From contig CAVWLW010000009.1 in NCBI GenBank assembly GCA_963755715.1, positions 17,347 through 81,346 of the forward strand: DNA of 64,000 bases, written 5' to 3'. Shown here one piece after another: positions 16,148-25,268 of this stretch. The stretch is from an uncultured delta proteobacterium (lineage in GTDB: Bacteria; Desulfobacterota; Binatia; UBA9968). Under the pieces are notes generated by a model. The model made no database searches. It had not been told where the DNA came from and saw only the letters and a program-made list of their open reading frames with translations. The stretch's first letter is position 1; every line of letters starts with the position of its first letter. The position numbers and the translations under genes were made by a program.

Positions 16148-17670
16148 CTAACCCGCCTTGCGAAACGATCTTTTCCAAGCAAACAAAGCAACCGCGAGCG
16201 AGATAATCGTCATCGCCCACGCGAACCAATCGCCGAAACGCACGTAGAAGGTTTCGCCGTTTAGAATCTCGACTTCGGTTTGCATCGTATCCGCTCTGAA
16301 CATCGGCAGCGTTTTGACCACTTCGCCTTTGGCGTTCACCAACGAAGTGACGCCGGTGTTGGTCACGCGCAGCAGGCTACGGCGAGTTTCTATGGCGCGC
16401 GATTGCGCGAGCCATAAGTGTTGCCAAGGCCCGACGGTTTTTCCGTACCAGGCGTCATTGGTGAGATTTACCAGAATATTCGCGCGCGTTTCGCCGACGA
16501 ACTTACGCGATATGTCCGGCATCAAATCCTCATAGCAGATCAGCGGCGCAATCCGGACACCTCGAGATAAATTAAAAGCGATAGGCCCCGGTCCGGGCGT
16601 GAAGCCCTCGGCGAATGGTATTCCGGGTATAAGCGACAAGATTTTGGCGAACGGCAAGTATTCGCCGAAGGCAAGTAGTACCTGTTTGTGATAGCGGCCC
16701 AGGACCCGTCCTTTAGCGTCAGTGAAAAAAGCCGTGTTAAAGGCTTTGGCGCCGGGGCGGCCGAGCGTGCCGCGAAAACTTTTCGCGCCGAAGATAAAAT
16801 AGGTTTGGCTGGACTTGAATGACGGCATCACTTCCGGCGGCAGAGCCGGCAGATCCTCCGGCACCAGGAATTCGACCGCCGATTCCGGCCAAATCACCAA
16901 GCGCAACCGCATCCAACCGGTCGGTGAGCTTGCGGTGCTCATCAAGATTTTTCTGTGCCAAAGCAGGGTCCCATTTAAGATCGATATCCACGTTGCCCTG
17001 CACCGCGGCCACAGGCAATTTGCGCGCCGTTGCCATGTCCTCTCCGACGCTTTCAATTCTCTGGAATCCATAGACGAGCGACAATGCGATCACAAAAACC
17101 GAACAACCGAGCGGGAGAAAACGAACCGAGGGTTCCTGTTCTCGAGCAAGCCAGAGCTTGGAACAACGCCGCGTTAAACCAGACAACGATGAAACCAGCG
17201 CCGTAAGGTCCAACAAGATCGGCGCTCTGGATAAACCACAAAAATGACACCTGCGAGTTGGCCACGTGCCAGGGAAAAAGCAGCGGAAATAAAAATTCGA
17301 GCGCCACCCAGAACACAGCAGGAAATATGCACAAGGGACCGAGCCCGACGCTGCGCACCAGCAGCGCAAAGAGCGCCATTTGAATGGCCTGCAACGCGGC
17401 ATAGAGCAGAAAGACGATCGCGCTTATGGAATAAGGAAAGCCGCCAAAGGCACTGATCGTATAGACCAGCCAGTGAAATCCAATCAGATGCGCGACAAAG
17501 CCCATGAACCAGCCGCAAAACACCGCCTTGCGAAATGTTCCCGCGCGCTGAATTGCCCAAAAGAGCGGCACGAACGAGAGCCAAGCCAGCGGAAACAAGC
17601 GCGGCTCGAGGAAAGGCGCCGCCAGCAGGGCCGCGGAGAGCATCGAGAGAAGCATTTTTACCAATATCAC
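16148..17670 (-). CDS. lnt: Apolipoprotein N-acyltransferase (split by frameshifts)
   Basis: LAWLSFVPL, FPWH, VQGNV, VIWPESA, YHKQVLLAFGEYLP, PLICYEDL, NLTNDAWYG, RAIETRR..RVTNTG spread over three frames. Confidence 0.93.
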
Positions 17671-22026: not shown

Positions 22027-22889
22027 AACGACCTCCAACTGACGAATCCCCAACCCGTGGCGACAAAGTCCGGCATGTAAGCGGTGTACGATGCCTTCGC
22101 GTCACCGACGGCGCCGATCACGACCATCCAATTGAGAAACTCGGTATCGCCCGCTTGCAAAAGATCTTGGACGGAATAATCGACCAGACTCTTGCCCTTG
22201 CCTTGGCGCATCACCTCGAGGAGCTGGTGATCGAAAGTTTCGTCGATCTCGCCGATCCGCGGCGAGCCGGGGAAGTGCGACAAGCCGCCAGTGGCGAGGA
22301 TCGCCACGCGTTCTTGGAAATTCTCCGCCACCGCGCGAATCAGCTCGCCGACTTGATAGCAGCGCCGTGGCGACGGCGCCGGATCGACCCACGTGTTCAC
22401 ATAAACCGGAAGAATAGGAATCTTCGCTTCGCGCAGCAAGAAATAGAGCGGCACGTTCTGCGTATGCTGCAACTCGATGTGCTCGCCGTACGAAAAATCG
22501 ATGCCTCTATCCATGCCCGCACGAATGATCGCTTTACCCAGCTCTTTGTGATTTCGGTAGTGAAAGCTATGACGCGTAAACTGCCCTTTGACTTCGTCGC
22601 CGATGGTGACAAAGAAGGTCGGAATATTGTTCCAAAAAAAGTTGACGAATTGATCGTTGGCAACGACGATCAAAACGTCGGGTTTGGCTTGTTCCAAATC
22701 TTCGCGCAAAACGGCAAATGCAGCCTCAGCATCTTGCCTAAGTTTTTTCTGCTGCTCGAATGTCGGCCGGTTCGCAGAAGCTTGCGGCGCCATGCTGTAG
22801 TGAAGATCCATGAAATCTTCCCATTCGCGTCCCGGCTCAAGTAGGATGTTCGGTGCATGGCTCGCAGCCAAAGCGGATACAAGAGGCAT
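22023..22889 (-). CDS. LigB/MhpB-like class III extradiol ring-cleavage dioxygenase
   Basis: SHAP, KPDVLIVVANDQF, TGGLSHFPG, IDETFD, TEFLNW; GAGGAG RBS. Confidence 0.87.
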   Translation of the reverse strand: MPLVSALAASHAPNILLEPGREWEDFMDLHYSMAPQASANRPTFEQQKKLRQDAEAAFAVLREDLEQAKPDVLIVVANDQFVNFFWNNIPTFFVTIGDEVKGQFTRHSFHYRNHKELGKAIIRAGMDRGIDFSYGEHIELQHTQNVPLYFLLREAKIPILPVYVNTWVDPAPSPRRCYQVGELIRAVAENFQERVAILATGGLSHFPGSPRIGEIDETFDHQLLEVMRQGKGKSLVDYSVQDLLQAGDTEFLNWMVVIGAVGDAKASYTAYMPDFVATGWGFVSWRSL

Positions 22890-23049
22890 AGGCAACTCCT
22901 CAGTGAATTGCAAAAATCCTATTCCCCGACCTGGGAAAAAGCAACCGCGAGATCGGATGAAGAGAACACTCCCGGCAAGTGCCCGAAGCAATCAATTTCG
23001 CGGATGATTCGAATAGAAAAATCGGCGAGACTCGAATGCGAGGCGTAAA

Positions 23050-23187
23050 TCAGAGCATCCGATAATTGCGCACGGAAAAATAAATCAACGCGACTACCGC
23101 GACCACTGATATGATCGGATGGTTCAAAACCCACGCGAATGACGGGTTCATGATATTGTGAATTATATACTCGATAAACCTATCCAT
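23050..23187 (-). CDS. 45-aa single-pass membrane microprotein
   Basis: MDRFIEYIIHNIMNPSFAWVLNHPIISVVAVVALIYFSVRNYRML; GGAG RBS; hydrophobic segment followed by basic residues. Confidence 0.55.
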   Translation of the reverse strand: MDRFIEYIIHNIMNPSFAWVLNHPIISVVAVVALIYFSVRNYRML

Positions 23188-23492
23188 GTGATCTCCATTC
23201 CCTCGCGTTGGTCGGCCACAGTTTAACACAAAAGCGATCTTGTCGGAAAAGACCGAAATCGAAATCGGCAACCCAGCGACCAAAGCGCCAGCAGCCAAAG
23301 CCCAAAATAGCCGAGTTGCTGCCAACTTGGCAATCTAAGGAGTAATGTGGAGATTATTTGTACAAGTTTGCCTATTTTAGGCCATTTCTGGACAGAATCG
23401 CAGCGTAACGACGATTGAAACAGCCTGCCCTTTCTGAGCAACACCCGCTAAAAATCAGCGTTTTCTCATGATCAAGCGAAAACCAGCGAGAC

Positions 23493-23508
23493 TGGCATTG
23501 CCGTTGCT
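23493..23508 (+). promoter_or_regulatory. Putative sigma54 (-24/-12) promoter
   Basis: TGGCATTGCCGTTGCT fits the TGGCAC-N5-TTGCW spacing and lies ~40 nt upstream of the 23547 start. Confidence 0.5.
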
Positions 23509-23546
23509 CTCTTTGCCGGACATCAAGTTTATTGGAGGAGCGATCA

Positions 23547-23696
23547 ATGAAACTACTATTAGCGACAATGTTCAAGAAATTGCCAGTGAGAACGACCAAA
23601 CAGCGCGCCACGATTTGTAAACGCTGTGGCACGCGCATCTATTCGTTGAGTTATTTGAAAGCGCATTTAGAAGCTCACGACAGAAAAACTCATTAA
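23547..23696 (+). CDS. 49-aa C2H2 zinc-finger microprotein (not in the ORF track)
   Basis: GGAGG RBS; MKLLLATMFKKLPVRTTKQRATICKRCGTRIYSLSYLKAHLEAHDRKTH contains C-x2-C-x12-H-x3-H. Confidence 0.7.
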   Translation: MKLLLATMFKKLPVRTTKQRATICKRCGTRIYSLSYLKAHLEAHDRKTH

Positions 23697-24288
23697 GCGA
23701 AAAAACAAAGGAAATGTACGATGGAGCTTTCGATTATTCCCTGGCAGGTGTTCCTTGACGCGTTGCATAAACAACAATCGGGCACGCTGGAACTTTGGCT
23801 GCGCAGTTGGTTATTTAGCAACGAAGGCGTGATGCTCGCCGACGATAGTTTCGCAACGACGGATTATTCGTCTGTTCCCGGGTGATGACAAAAGTTTCTG
23901 CAACTGCAAAATGGCTGGGACGAATGTCGAATCGGCCCGACAAAAATCTGCCGGCGACGAGATGGTCTCGGCAGAGTTCCTGCCCAAGCAAGACCGCCGC
24001 GAGCTAAACAGCCCTGCAACCATCCGCTGGCTCTCGTCGTCGATCGAACGGAAAGAGAACTGCGCGAACTGGAAGTCATGTTAAGCAATCGTCCGAACTG
24101 TAGCCGATGGACGCCGGAGAACGGGCCGATCATGGCCGTGTTGTCGAGCGCAGAGAGCCAAGACCACAAAGCACCTGAAGATTTGACCTGAGACCAGCCA
24201 TCTTTTTCTGCCCCTTAGCCCTGCTGCGCGGTTAGCCGGACGGCAGAGATCACCGTAAAATTAATTTAGATCAAACGAGGAACCGCAA

Positions 24289-24561
24289 ATGGAAGCCGTG
24301 AAGATCATAACGCCTCCCGCCGAGCGAAAACCCTGCGTCTGCGGCGCCACTCTCTACATCTGCCGCGAGTCGACGGAACAACGCAGAAATCAAATGTGGC
24401 GCTGCGCGCGCCACTGCGGCGCGCGCGGGTTAACCTATGAGGGCGCGCTGCGGCGAAAACTGCGATTGGATCTATTGAGCTGGGGCGACCTAAAACGCAA
24501 AGCGCAAGCCTTAATCGAGGCTGACAATGAAGACCTAATAAATGTGTCGCTCCTGCAATGA
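24289..24561 (+). CDS. Small Cys-rich hypothetical protein
   Basis: GAGGA RBS; CVC...C...CARHC followed by a helical C-terminus. Confidence 0.55.
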   Translation: MEAVKIITPPAERKPCVCGATLYICRESTEQRRNQMWRCARHCGARGLTYEGALRRKLRLDLLSWGDLKRKAQALIEADNEDLINVSLLQ

Positions 24562-24794
24562 ATCATCCCTGTCAACAAAGGGTGTACCGGCGAACACTGT
24601 TCACTGCGCTTGGAGGGGTCCAAGGCGACAACCATCCTACAATTGATGAAGCATGGTAGACGCGGCAACGGCGATCTTAGCTGAAGTGGTCGCTCGTGAG
24701 AGATGCTGGACGTCATCCAGTGGTTAGCGTAAGTGTAGTCTGCTTTCGGGATGGACTAATAGACGTTTCCCTTGCTTCTCAGGAGCGCCCCGGC

Positions 24795-25268
24795 TTGAAT
24801 ACATTTTGCCAAAGAGCCGTACTGTTTTTCGTAACCGGCGCGGGAGTGGGATATTTTCCCCGGCTCCCAGGGACCATCGGAACTCTTGTTGCCATTCCGT
24901 TCTCGCTCGCGCTTAACCACATCGCCGTGCGCAACTTTCCACTTGCCGTAGCGATTGTGGTCGGATCGATCTTCTGCGCGATATGGCTGTCGACCCAAGG
25001 GGCCAGAATTCTGAAACAGAAAGATCCGCAGTTCATCGTCATTGACGAGATCGTAGGCTTCCTTGTGGCCAATTTTCTTGCTCCTCCGCGATTGACTGCC
25101 TTGCTCTGGAGTTTTCTATTATTTCGCTTCTTCGATATCGCCAAGGTATTCCCGACGAACAGATTAGAACGATTGCCGGATGGGGCCGGCATTGTGCTGG
25201 ATGACGTAATGGCAGGCGTGTACACGCTCATCAGCTTGCGGCTGCTGTTGAAAATGGGTTGGGCCTGA
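24795..25268 (+). CDS. pgpA: Phosphatidylglycerophosphatase A
   Basis: GVGYFPRLPGTIGT, KDPQFIVIDEIVG, LFRFFDIAK, GIVLDDVMAG; TTG start with AGGAG RBS. Confidence 0.9.
   Translation: MNTFCQRAVLFFVTGAGVGYFPRLPGTIGTLVAIPFSLALNHIAVRNFPLAVAIVVGSIFCAIWLSTQGARILKQKDPQFIVIDEIVGFLVANFLAPPRLTALLWSFLLFRFFDIAKVFPTNRLERLPDGAGIVLDDVMAGVYTLISLRLLLKMGWA

Follow-up and report, generated by a model that had tools for sequence, protein, structure and literature searches.

Gene content of the locus

The window of this study, i.e. the whole stretch of DNA that was analysed, comprises 64,000 nucleotides, and the features discussed here are compiled in Table 1. They are arranged around a gene of 49 codons with a single Cys2His2 (C2H2) zinc-finger pattern in its product, preceded by a ribosome-binding site, a sigma-54-type promoter and a conserved upstream island and followed by further small genes. 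What appears to be an empty 1.6-kb stretch is occupied by four small genes in a conserved row, which ORF-length cut-offs hide.

Table 1. Genes and signals at the finger locus, in positions of the window.
Feature	Position	Strand	Basis or remark
Conserved island GTACAA-N2-TTG, then second G-x-CA...TG block	23357..23392		upstream alignment
Sigma-54-type promoter TGGCAT-N5-TTGCT (TGGCAT-TGCCG-TTGCT)	23493..23508	+	sequence and conservation
Predicted transcription start (~23519-23520) and CATCAA block	23519..23526	+	start placed from the -12 element, 12 nt past GC
Ribosome-binding site GGAGGA	23534..23539	+	7 nt 5' of the ATG
49-codon C2H2 finger gene	23547..23696	+	sequence, conservation, dN/dS ~0.08, predicted fold, profile matches
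Layout of the finger gene product			residues 1-20 hydrophobic-basic N-terminal arm; C24, C27, H40, H44 finger; 45-49 variable tail
orf-a, Trp-rich, predicted helical, 54 aa here (~48 aa in relatives)	23721..23885	+	16 distinct conserved copies
orf-b homologue, Cys/His small protein in relatives	23889..24191	+	18 distinct intact copies in relatives
orf-c, conserved 90-aa Cys-rich protein (C-x-C ... C-x3-C)	24289..24561	+	11 of 26 loci, 12 distinct copies

The sequence reads as an ATG at 23547 and a TAA at 23694-23696, and the 49-aa ORF, the GGAGG and the ATG were thus found where the initial annotation had placed them. The ORF program opens the same frame at a TTG (23532, 54 aa); ATG 23547 was taken as the conserved start because in four relatives a stop codon lies 1 to 5 codons upstream. 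Ribosome sites of the GGAG or AGGAG-like type were present in most orthologs and weaker in three.

Coding evidence and distribution

The finger ORF was kept in 18 of the 24 other genomes of the genus, a tally that takes in the unpublished genome G005, each time with 49 codons, without stop or indel, and with protein identities of 76-92%. The six genomes without the gene had completeness values of 60, 65, 84, 86, 95 and 97%. The stop codon occupied the identical position in all 19 sequences, and the earlier suggestion that an indel in the A-run might extend the C-terminus could therefore be discarded. Median values of 0.13 for dN and 1.69 for dS were obtained, with a median dN/dS of 0.08 (171 pairs compared, 89 of them with correctable dS). 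The four ligands were invariant in 50 sequences comprising the gene, its paralogs and distant relatives, and no frame disruption occurred in the 18 genomes, and two of the checks proposed in the initial annotation, homologs and dN/dS, turned out in favour of the gene. Purifying selection acts strongly on the stretch 23547-23696, which is a real protein-coding gene.

An overlapping RNA element, promoter or antisense gene might also keep such a frame open, and the shortness of the ORF as well as an 88-aa antisense ORF (23372-23638) overlapping the finger gene would fit this reading, which we nevertheless regard as extremely improbable and close to refuted. The third codon position varied in 46 of the 49 codons, against 25 and 19 for positions 1 and 2; synonymous change among the orthologs was saturated while pN amounted to 0.06-0.2; the length was fixed and the ligands did not change; an Rfam scan of 22800-24900 gave no match at E <= 1; and it is the protein pattern, not the DNA, that the paralogs have in common. 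When the 7.4-Mb genome was translated in six frames, the strict finger pattern occurred five times, compared with 0, 0 and 0 in three trinucleotide shuffles, and three of these five are the 49-aa gene and its two paralogs.

The description of the gene as uncalled did not hold, as 95 clusters related to the 49-aa protein, 74 of them exactly 49 aa long, are already called as hypothetical proteins in a collection of 5.8 billion proteins, and the exact sequence is present in the ESM Atlas. Relatives were located on 26 named MAG contigs. A profile built from 50 family members did not find the family outside the genus in 200 other genomes of the same phylum, the sole marginal match (E 9.1e-5) lying within a 319-aa frame. 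Neither the 49-aa protein nor paralog A had a tblastn match in 50,697 phage records, hence there was no sign of phage origin in that record collection.

Contigs assembled from RNA libraries of four studies, which carry neither transcript ends nor strand, covered 23542-23692, 23717-23838, 23321-23553 and 24264-24556 at a depth of 2-3 with DNA carry-over being possible, while 23872-24223 lay outside their coverage. They provide weak evidence that the finger locus is transcribed. One of them (X11) crosses the promoter, as would be expected from contaminating DNA or read-through rather than from transcription beginning at ~23519.

Promoter and upstream island

A sigma54-like promoter had been noticed in the initial annotation, and the alignment of the orthologs substantiated it in the form TGGCAT-N5-TTGCT. 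TGGCA (23493-23497) and TTGCT (23504-23508) show the GG-GC spacing of 10 bp of a -24/-12 promoter, 54 nt upstream of the ATG. Of 28 distinct regions upstream of orthologs, 27 have kept the motif amid diverging flanks; the single exception is situated 149 nt from a contig end with unrelated DNA upstream. It matches experimentally bound Salmonella sigma-54 sites given in the literature (PMC3844500). In all three paralogs the motif was found 48-58 nt 5' of the ATG, and a PII-type gene of the same genome carries it as well. Genome-wide, TGGCAY-N5-TTGCH occurred 82 times versus ~21.5 expected from composition. The genome encodes rpoN (one Sigma54_DBD match, E 6.9e-63) and enhancer-binding proteins (31 Sigma54_activat matches, E <= 1e-59). 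Judged from its sequence and conservation, the finger-gene promoter is a conserved one of the sigma-54 (-24/-12) type. The CATCAA block at the predicted start was conserved to at least 70-90% in the upstream alignment.

The island is positioned 101-136 bp upstream of the -24 element; when 27 distinct upstream regions were aligned, its columns were at least 90% conserved amid diverged flanks. Sites of bacterial enhancer-binding proteins are typically located ~70-150 bp upstream according to two reports (PMC7057263, PMC3844500), and we infer that the island is a candidate enhancer (UAS) for such a protein. Alternatively, it could belong to a divergent gene for a small membrane protein. As a regulon marker GTACAA-N2-TTG showed no enrichment, with 12 copies in the genome; the finger-gene promoter was the only strict sigma-54 site in the genome with this motif at enhancer distance. 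A further copy on contig C25 is suggestive: a relaxed sigma-54-like site follows it at ~105 nt, immediately past an enhancer-binding-protein gene at 137736-139565.

Finger motif and predicted fold

The pattern C-x2-C-x3-hydrophobic-x5-L-x2-H-x3-H, as initially annotated, was recovered as C24-x2-C27-x3-I31-x5-L37-x2-H40-x3-H44 with a 12-residue spacer between C27 and H40. Across 40 sequences of the three paralog groups C24, C27, G28, L37, H40 and H44 were invariant, and the core positions I31 and L37 were so in 24 sequences, an aliphatic residue replacing the usual Phe/Tyr. Likewise, the proposed basic N-terminal arm is present and as conserved as the finger. Among the basic residues of the protein, K11, R20, K25 and R30 are invariant, K10 and R15 almost. 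Residue 49 varies between H, L, R and T among the orthologs.

For residues 21-49 AlphaFold predicted a beta-beta-alpha finger (pLDDT ~83) whose two strands span 22-23 and 30-31 and whose helix spans 34-48; the first 20 residues were of low confidence (pLDDT 52-59) and predicted to be disordered, though conserved. The term canonical in the initial annotation goes too far: the ligand spacing is the classical one, but zf-C2H2 (PF00096) scored 16.7 bits (E 0.01), below the cut-off of 25.2 bits. The score for zf-C2HE was 19.2 bits versus a cut-off of 30.1, only one of 50 family members matched PF00096 at E <= 0.01, and none of the 49-aa protein, orf-a and orf-c corresponded to an NCBIfam family.

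Searching the PDB with the family profile gave HKR3 entry 8jq0 as best match (E 4.5e-5), together with 5yj3 (E 2.9e-4) and Miz-1 7mc1 (E 9.1e-4). Classical C2H2 fingers made up most of the 60 matches listed, which also contained MSS4 exchange factors, ribosomal proteins and an RNA polymerase subunit at E of at least 0.08. In Foldseek there was no match at E <= 0.001 for the 49-aa protein or the paralog A model; the best rows superimposed within 0.6-1.0 Å over 22-27 residues, but with E of at least 0.48. The VIA fold comparison stayed at Z <= 3.5 throughout. The top rows of both methods, though weak in score, were nearly all C2H2, UBZ or CCHC fingers, and the matches are statistically weak, as is to be expected with ~30 residues. 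Residues 21-49 are thus predicted to form a single classical beta-beta-alpha Cys2His2 finger. Taken jointly, the gene, the finger and the promoter as such are held with very high confidence.

Downstream genes

The finger gene comes first in a conserved series of small genes whose products are rich in Cys and His. Orf-a begins 24 nt after the finger-gene stop with its own AAGGA ribosome site and has no sigma-54 motif of its own; it is probably co-transcribed with the finger gene. By tblastn it was detected in 14 of 26 named loci, with W8, W26 and W30 invariant and a pN/pS of 0.25. The orf-b frame is open in the present genome, but its conserved part is not preceded by an ATG, GTG or TTG, Arg has replaced one of the Cys residues in the C-P-N-C motif, and orf-b may be decaying here. 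For orf-c no Pfam or NCBIfam match was obtained.

Paralogs and family

Beside the 49-aa gene, each genome contains two longer paralogs (66-69 aa), with which the 49-aa protein shares 29-37% identity. In the family consensus the finger, C-x2-C-G-x-K-x-Y-P ... H-x3-H, leads into a long helix, in a total of ~60-70 aa. In public genomes a sigma-54 promoter stands before 49 of 54 members of the family; in the wider family it is situated 45-62 nt before the start. The 49-aa protein has in common with its paralogs and the wider family the four ligands in register, an Ala three residues before the first Cys and the sigma-54 promoter. It differs in that it stops 5 residues after His44, without the C-terminal helix that in the family ends in M-R, in that Ser33 stands where the family has an almost invariant Pro behind its aromatic residue, and in its hydrophobic-basic arm, where AlphaFold places two extra strands in paralog A. 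From these alignments, the 49-aa protein is best described as a truncated, divergent, short basic branch of a one-finger family of ~50-70 residues. This family is uncatalogued and nearly always sigma-54-linked. No sigma-54-linked C2H2 protein was found in the literature searches, in one of which most of the C2H2 hits, as judged by titles and abstracts, were about acetylene in nitrogenase work. In the fold comparison of paralog A, ZifS (PDB 8yoz) was a weak entry at rank 30 with an rmsd of 9 Å.

Proposed function and competing readings

As the best overall explanation we consider a zinc-stabilised, nucleic-acid-binding mini-regulator, to which we give an even chance; for the nucleic-acid-binding mechanism as such the chance is even at best. 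In this model an enhancer-binding protein at ~23357-23392 would activate the sigma-54 RNA polymerase, and only then would the finger gene be transcribed, on an mRNA that probably takes in the next small gene or genes too. One Zn(II) would be held by C24, C27, H40 and H44, the finger together with the basic arm would bind nucleic acid, most probably DNA, much as the single finger with basic arm of the GAGA factor or Ros does, and the 49-aa protein would act as a small conditional regulator. Over its 49 residues the protein carries a net charge of +9 to +11 (pI 10.3-11.4), which, like the conserved basic arm, agrees with a regulatory or nucleic-acid role.

Positions -1, 2, 3 and 6 of the helix usually contact DNA bases in C2H2 fingers. 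In the 49-aa protein they are S33, S35, Y/F36 and A39 and not Arg, Lys, Asn, Gln or Asp, and in the paralogs they read P/A-or-Q/E-or-S/L. Furthermore, the proteins of paralog group A range from acidic to neutral (pI 5.1-6.9), which means that DNA binding is not family-wide, and its model contains one predicted exposed helix of 31 residues that would suit pairing. The atypical helix residues and this acidic group leave room for a protein-binding role. The foremost competing reading, possible if doubtful in our view, is therefore an adaptor that binds protein: finger and hydrophobic N-terminus would dock on a protein partner as UBZ-type and other beta-beta-alpha fingers do, and the products of orf-a, orf-b or orf-c, an enhancer-binding protein or RNA polymerase/sigma-54 could be that partner. 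The top VIA match was the UBZ finger of Pol eta (3wup; Z 3.5, rmsd 1.4 Å over 30 residues), and 4 of 50 family members weakly matched Pfam zf_UBZ (best E 3.7e-5, all below the curated cut-offs). M1, L4, T7 and F9 are invariant despite the predicted disorder of the N-terminus, and the place of the finger gene at the head of its row would suit an adaptor as well. In Helicobacter the zinc-ribbon protein FlgZ is reported to stabilise sigma-54 (PMC3372290). On the other hand, the high net charge would be unusual for a pure protein adaptor, and the N-terminus was unchanged in the 13 of 30 distinct loci that lack orf-a, so that orf-a is not an obligate partner.

Size, extreme basicity and the single zinc site also resemble small zinc ribosomal proteins, and a sigma-54-induced protein associated with RNA or the ribosome, perhaps a ribosome or RNA chaperone factor specific to certain conditions, would accommodate them. 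A VIA row for 6skg_Bo, an archaeal ribosomal chain (Z 3.0), and the JGI names of paralog-A relatives ('ribosomal protein S27AE', 'L34E', besides 'predicted nucleic-acid-binding Zn-ribbon protein') point the same way, but these names are automatic, and the NCBIfam matches to L40e and S27e (E 0.03-0.06, 13-14 bits versus cut-offs of 54-70) concern the paralogs only, the 49-aa protein having none. The distribution, one genus among those searched, is also unlike that of ribosomal components, and we consider this role improbable. We regard it as very improbable that the protein handles zinc, whether as buffer, store or metallochaperone, and has no macromolecular target. A Cys2His2 site with more His near the C-terminus and several small Cys/His proteins clustered downstream might suggest it, but the C-terminal His49 is not conserved, one site per 49 residues makes a poor store, the neighbourhood has no zinc-uptake or Zur-type context, and the strongly conserved basic arm would be left unexplained.

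Significance

Classical C2H2 fingers with the 12-residue spacer dominate eukaryotic transcription factors; to our knowledge they are rare and essentially unstudied in bacteria, and the textbook bacterial finger, Ros/MucR, has another spacing and fold. The 49-residue protein and its two paralogs might even represent a new class of sigma-54 regulon output, namely free-standing single C2H2 fingers of the classical type; their role would be that of minimal, signal-gated transcription factors, or of modulators that feed back on enhancer-binding proteins or on the sigma-54 polymerase. On this reading, which we regard as rather unlikely, they would form a bacterial lineage of 12-spacer beta-beta-alpha fingers independent of Ros/MucR and would bear on the origin of the eukaryotic C2H2 finger. 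A conserved minimal bacterial finger of 49 residues is within reach of a peptide synthesiser, and the three paralog lines per genome, with a sigma-54 promoter before almost every family member, offer a regulatory handle. Two questions become testable: whether one bacterial finger on its own, equipped with a basic arm, can bind DNA specifically, and which products other than enzymes and transporters the sigma-54 regulons of uncultured soil bacteria supply.

Comparison with known systems

With the classical C2H2 finger (TFIIIA/Krueppel-type, PF00096) the protein shares C-x2-C-x12-H-x3-H, the hydrophobic core of I31 and L37 and the predicted beta-beta-alpha fold, the nearest solved examples found being the HKR3/TZAP fingers (8jq0, 5yj3) and finger 10 of Miz-1 (7mc1). 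In contrast to these it is bacterial, has one finger in 49 residues without linker or array, carries Ile for the usual aromatic residue and atypical base-contact residues, stays below the Pfam threshold and would be expressed from a sigma-54 promoter.

UBZ fingers such as that of Pol eta (3wup), the best VIA match, are small beta-beta-alpha Cys2His2 units too; they belong to eukaryotic DNA-damage proteins and bind protein rather than DNA. We know of no ubiquitin in bacteria.

Ros/MucR (PF05443) is likewise bacterial, with a single Cys2His2 site and basic flanks, which in Ros help DNA binding (PMC9779718). The Ros motif given there, C-x2-C-x3-F-x2-L-x2-H-x3-H-H, has a 9-residue spacer, which upholds the distinction from the classical 12-residue spacing drawn in the initial annotation. 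Membership in this family was excluded by the 12-residue spacer of the 49-aa protein, by the structured part of ~29 residues with one helix, and by the ROS_MUCR profile (PF05443), which did not match at E <= 10; Ros87 was not among the fold matches listed by Foldseek and VIA.

The C(P)XCG micro-proteins of Haloferax volcanii are below 70 aa with a single zinc domain and are reported to show regulatory or stress phenotypes (PMC6562870, PMC11241148, PMC10716476). They differ in being archaeal, in having a four-Cys knuckle or ribbon and in having no link to sigma-54.

The architecture of one finger plus an N-terminal basic arm is that of the GAGA factor (1yuj). GAGA is eukaryotic and its VIA match was weak (Z 2.7, rmsd 12.4 Å over 49 residues), the likeness being one of architecture. 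In GAGA, finger and basic arm are sufficient for sequence-specific DNA binding, and by analogy the 49-aa protein may work like the GAGA DNA-binding domain.

A conserved 49-codon finger gene

All of the features named in the initial annotation, i.e. a TGGCA/TTGCT element, GGAGG, an ATG and a 49-aa C2H2 frame, are present as read between 23493 and 23696 (+). The finger gene product (MKLLLATMFKKLPVRTTKQRATICKRCGTRIYSLSYLKAHLEAHDRKTH, 49 residues by translation) carries a finger-type zinc site, C24-x2-C27-x3-I31-x5-L37-x2-H40-x3-H44. The ORF listing opens this frame at a TTG five codons upstream of the ATG; because the ATG is common to all relatives and a stop codon lies 1–5 codons upstream of it in four of them, the ATG was taken as the start. 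Six-frame translation of the 7.4-Mb assembly gave five occurrences of the strict finger pattern, three of which are the finger gene and its two paralogs, versus 0, 0 and 0 in three trinucleotide-shuffled genomes.

Of 24 other genomes of the genus, 18 proved to have a full-length copy (76–92% identity) in a six-frame search; the six genomes without it are 60, 65, 84, 86, 95 and 97% complete. This count and the selection statistics take in an unpublished genome (G005), whose upstream sequence was independently found on the public contig JBOHVN010000016.1. All 19 sequences comprise exactly 49 codons and are free of indels and stops; the terminal stop lies at the identical place throughout, contradicting the hidden indel suspected at the A-run near 23684. 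In the 171 pairs compared, synonymous differences approach saturation (proportion 0.5–0.9 against the window's copy) and the proportion of non-synonymous differences is 0.06–0.2; the 89 pairs with correctable dS yield medians of 0.13 for dN, 1.69 for dS and 0.08 for dN/dS. Variable sites at codon positions 1, 2 and 3 amount to 25, 19 and 46 of 49. Taken together, these results rule out both a chance ORF and conservation due to the overlapping antisense frame. By the dN/dS check suggested earlier, the finger gene is under selection.

Among 5.8 billion proteins, a word-indexed search found 95 clusters, none of them below 76% identity (74 of exactly 49 aa; named ones labelled 'hypothetical protein'), and the ESM Atlas contains the identical sequence. 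Gene finders thus do call the family, and the label "uncalled" fails at family level. The gene was also located on 26 named MAG contigs (9 Candidatus Binatia, 12 Deltaproteobacteria or 'delta proteobacterium', 5 with other labels).

Coordinates of the features (window positions unless a contig or locus is named)
Feature	Location	Strand	Remarks
sigma-54-type element TGGCAT-TGCCG-TTGCT	23493-23508	+	sequence
Ribosome site GGAGGA	23534-23539	+	sequence
Finger gene	23547-23696	+	ATG 23547 (sequence); TAA 23694-23696
Conserved island, GTACAA-N2-TTG + following block	23357-23392		101-136 bp upstream of -24 element; alignment
Paralog	C27 192581-192787	-	behind own TGGCAT-N5-TTGCT
Paralog	C32 57477-57683	-	behind own TGGCAT-N5-TTGCT
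Paralog loci	L002 1444-1641; L003 1435-1641	-
53-aa ORF, C-x2-C-x12-H-x3-C	C69 146921-147079; L181 301-459	-
Small-gene row	23721-24561	+
orf-a		+	~48 aa, Trp-rich; own ribosome site 24-33 nt past finger-gene stop; pN/pS 0.25
orf-b		+	~75-89 aa, Cys/His motifs
orf-b homologue of the window	23889-24191	+
orf-c		+	~89 aa, Cys-rich, C-x-C ... C-x3-C
Divergent 91-aa ORF	23050-23325	-
Apolipoprotein N-acyltransferase	16151-17670	-	LNT_N 17056-17670; CN_hydrolase 16151-17071
Second GTACAA-N2-TTG element	C25 ~137300-137500	-
Enhancer-binding-protein gene	C25 137736-139565		frame
RNA-library contig	23542-23692		almost exactly finger CDS
RNA-library contig	23717-23838		orf-a
RNA-library contig	24264-24556		orf-c, two studies
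RNA-library contig	23321-23553		spans promoter

Predicted finger fold and basic arm

AlphaFold (40-sequence alignment) gave a mean pLDDT of 72; residues 21–49 (pLDDT ~83; strands 22–23 and 30–31, helix 34–48) are modelled as a beta-beta-alpha finger, and residues 1–20 score 52–59. Against all PDB sequences the family profile is led by classical C2H2 fingers (8jq0, 4.5e-5; 5yj3, 2.9e-4; Miz-1, 9.1e-4), which fill most of the 60 rows listed; some MSS4, ribosomal-protein and RNA-polymerase chains also occur there, at E 0.08 and higher. The matches listed by Foldseek and VIA-align are almost exclusively C2H2, UBZ and CCHC fingers (0.6–1.0 A over 22–27 residues). Their scores are weak (E at least 0.48 and Z at most 3.5, respectively), which the small size of the domain would lead one to expect. 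The Pfam models zf-C2HE (19.2 vs 30.1 bits) and zf-C2H2 (16.7 vs a cut-off of 25.2 bits) remained sub-threshold; the ligand pattern and the PDB profile are those of a classical finger, but the word "canonical" in the initial annotation says too much. The 12-residue Cys2–His1 spacing was confirmed, the Ros spacer being given as 9 in PMC9779718, and Pfam returned no Ros/MucR match at E <= 10 for the 49-aa protein.

The protein is very basic (pI 10.3–11.4, net charge +9 to +11). Its basic N-terminal arm, already recognized earlier, is conserved to the same degree as the finger, with M1, L4, T7, F9, K11, P13, V14, T17, Q19 and R20 invariant in 18 sequences; the tail beyond H44 is variable, including its last His.

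Paralogs and wider family

The genomes of the genus each encode a pair of longer paralogs (in the window's own genome, of 66 and 69 aa). Like the finger protein, these have the four ligands, G28 and L37 as well as an Ala preceding the first Cys. For paralog A, AlphaFold predicts two extra N-terminal strands, a zinc knuckle and a single 31-residue helix. Conserved upstream repeats are TGTCA/TGACA-type dyads in the 69-aa group and ACAAAAATGT ... TGACA in the 66-aa group, a difference which suggests separate activators.

Among 1.84 billion representatives, a profile search identified 263 proteins at E <= 0.001, in two groups: many proteins of 47–130 residues with a strand, A-A-x-C-x2-C-G-x-K-x-Y-P, H-x3-H and a helix ending in M-R, and long eukaryote-type multi-finger proteins, one with 38 matched stretches. 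In an alignment of 50 members none of the four ligands varies, and the Pro hardly does. In contrast to the wider family with its Pro and C-terminal helix, the 49-aa branch carries Ser at the Pro position and lacks this helix; intermediate forms of 47–66 aa exist. Neither Pfam, where any one family matches at most 4 of the 50 members at E <= 0.01, nor NCBIfam holds a model for the family, and automatic JGI names, e.g. 'ribosomal protein S27AE', were rejected as unsupported by the scores.

In relatives, 21 of 22 paralog loci carry the sigma-54 motif. Scanning public genomes with a pattern yielded 112 matched stretches, 80 of which were fetched and 54 assigned to the family (HMM at least 64 bits). 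TGG[CT]A-N6-T[TC]GC precedes 49 of the 54; among the remainder three carry CGGCAT-N5-TTGCT and one is interrupted by the end of its contig. With both counts the sigma-54 link is a trait of the family to which the 49-aa protein belongs. Beyond the genus, only one of 200 sampled genomes of the same phylum gave a match to the family, and a marginal one.

A further 53-aa ORF (contig C69) was observed 112 nt downstream of another sigma-54-like site; it occurs in 8 of 24 genus genomes (41–58% identity) and matches zf-C2H2 (Pfam) below the cut-off (E 0.0011).

Promoter and upstream island

Ortholog upstream regions are otherwise diverged, yet TGGCA and GTTGCTC reach at least 90% conservation across 27 distinct sequences in an alignment. 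Overall there is one exception, a copy with unrelated upstream DNA situated 149 nt from the end of its contig. GG and GC are 10 bp apart, the same distance as in sigma-54 promoters, for which PMC3844500 describes a conserved GG at -24 and TGC at -12 as well as bound Salmonella sites of this form. Given this conservation and spacing, and one RpoN and 31 strong enhancer-binding-protein matches in the genome, the element first read as sigma54-like qualifies by computation as a sigma-54-type promoter. Transcription is predicted to start at ~23519–23520 (from the -12 GC), adjoining a conserved CATCAA, with a leader of 27 nt.

Genome-wide, TGGCAY-N5-TTGCH occurs at 82 sites, where base composition predicts ~21.5; one of them precedes a PII-type nitrogen-regulator gene, and all three finger genes have one 48–58 nt upstream of their ATG. 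Many of the 82 sites precede very short ORFs, and glycine-zipper and other small membrane proteins, a hemerythrin-like protein and a universal-stress-type protein are encoded behind them. These short ORFs and the 31 enhancer-binding proteins suggest a large, microprotein-rich sigma-54 regulon.

The conserved island lies at the usual distance of enhancer-binding-protein sites (~100–150 bp upstream according to PMC7057263, ~70–150 bp according to PMC3844500), for which reason we infer a candidate enhancer site; it could instead serve the divergent small membrane-protein gene. For a role as enhancer site, a candidate cognate activator is the enhancer-binding protein of contig C25, directly after whose gene a second GTACAA-N2-TTG element was observed, followed after ~105 nt by a relaxed sigma-54-like site (TGGCAACTGTTTTGCT). 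The motif shows no genome-wide enrichment.

Neighbourhood and RNA-library contigs

Genes for a small membrane protein, LigB, LigA and a short-chain dehydrogenase lie upstream on the opposite strand and are kept in 21–24 of 26 loci; pgpA and the genes beyond are syntenic in 0 of 26. Because the divergent 91-aa ORF is conserved over its last 45–70 residues only (36–69% identity, 24 of 26 loci), the gene probably encodes a ~45-aa membrane microprotein starting near 23187. Elsewhere in the window, apolipoprotein N-acyltransferase appears as two overlapping ORFs, which may reflect a frameshift or an assembly error.

Downstream, an apparently empty 1.6-kb stretch holds a row of three further small conserved genes on the same strand (orf-a, orf-b, orf-c), with order and strand alike in many relatives. 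They have no Pfam or NCBIfam matches and no sigma-54 motif of their own. Since no terminator-like site turned up when the + strand was scanned from 22900 to 24800, a common transcript with the finger gene is plausible. Absence of orf-a from 13 of 30 distinct loci, where the finger protein's arm is unchanged, counts against an obligate finger/orf-a pair. The window's orf-b frame is open, has no ATG, GTG or TTG before the conserved part and carries Arg for one Cys of C-P-N-C, in contrast to 18 distinct intact copies from relatives; it may be a decaying copy or have an unusual start.

Expression data consisted of assembled contigs of public runs, with RNA libraries from four studies at depth 2–3. 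These contigs give a weak hint of expression, presence in an RNA library being no proof of transcription, and the promoter-spanning one fits DNA carry-over or read-through.

Proposed working and comparison with known fingers

We propose that an enhancer-binding protein ~100–135 bp upstream of the promoter would fire transcription on a signal, that the 49-aa protein would bind one zinc ion and that finger and basic arm would jointly hold nucleic acid. Four points favour the main rival, a protein-binding adaptor: the helix surface is not basic, paralog A is acidic, there are UBZ-like matches, and the hydrophobic N-terminus is conserved. Holding of nucleic acid by finger and arm would have its analogy in single-finger domains with basic flanks, as in the GAGA factor. 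According to PMC9779718, basic flanks also help the single-finger domain of Ros to hold nucleic acid.

Literature searches found no paper on a family of free-standing single C2H2 fingers under sigma-54 control. Classical-type fingers are not unheard of in prokaryotes, since the ESM Atlas contains small archaeal C2H2 clusters. The 49-aa protein is not a member of Ros/MucR; at the domain level it resembles the classical C2H2 finger, and its proposed working would be similar.
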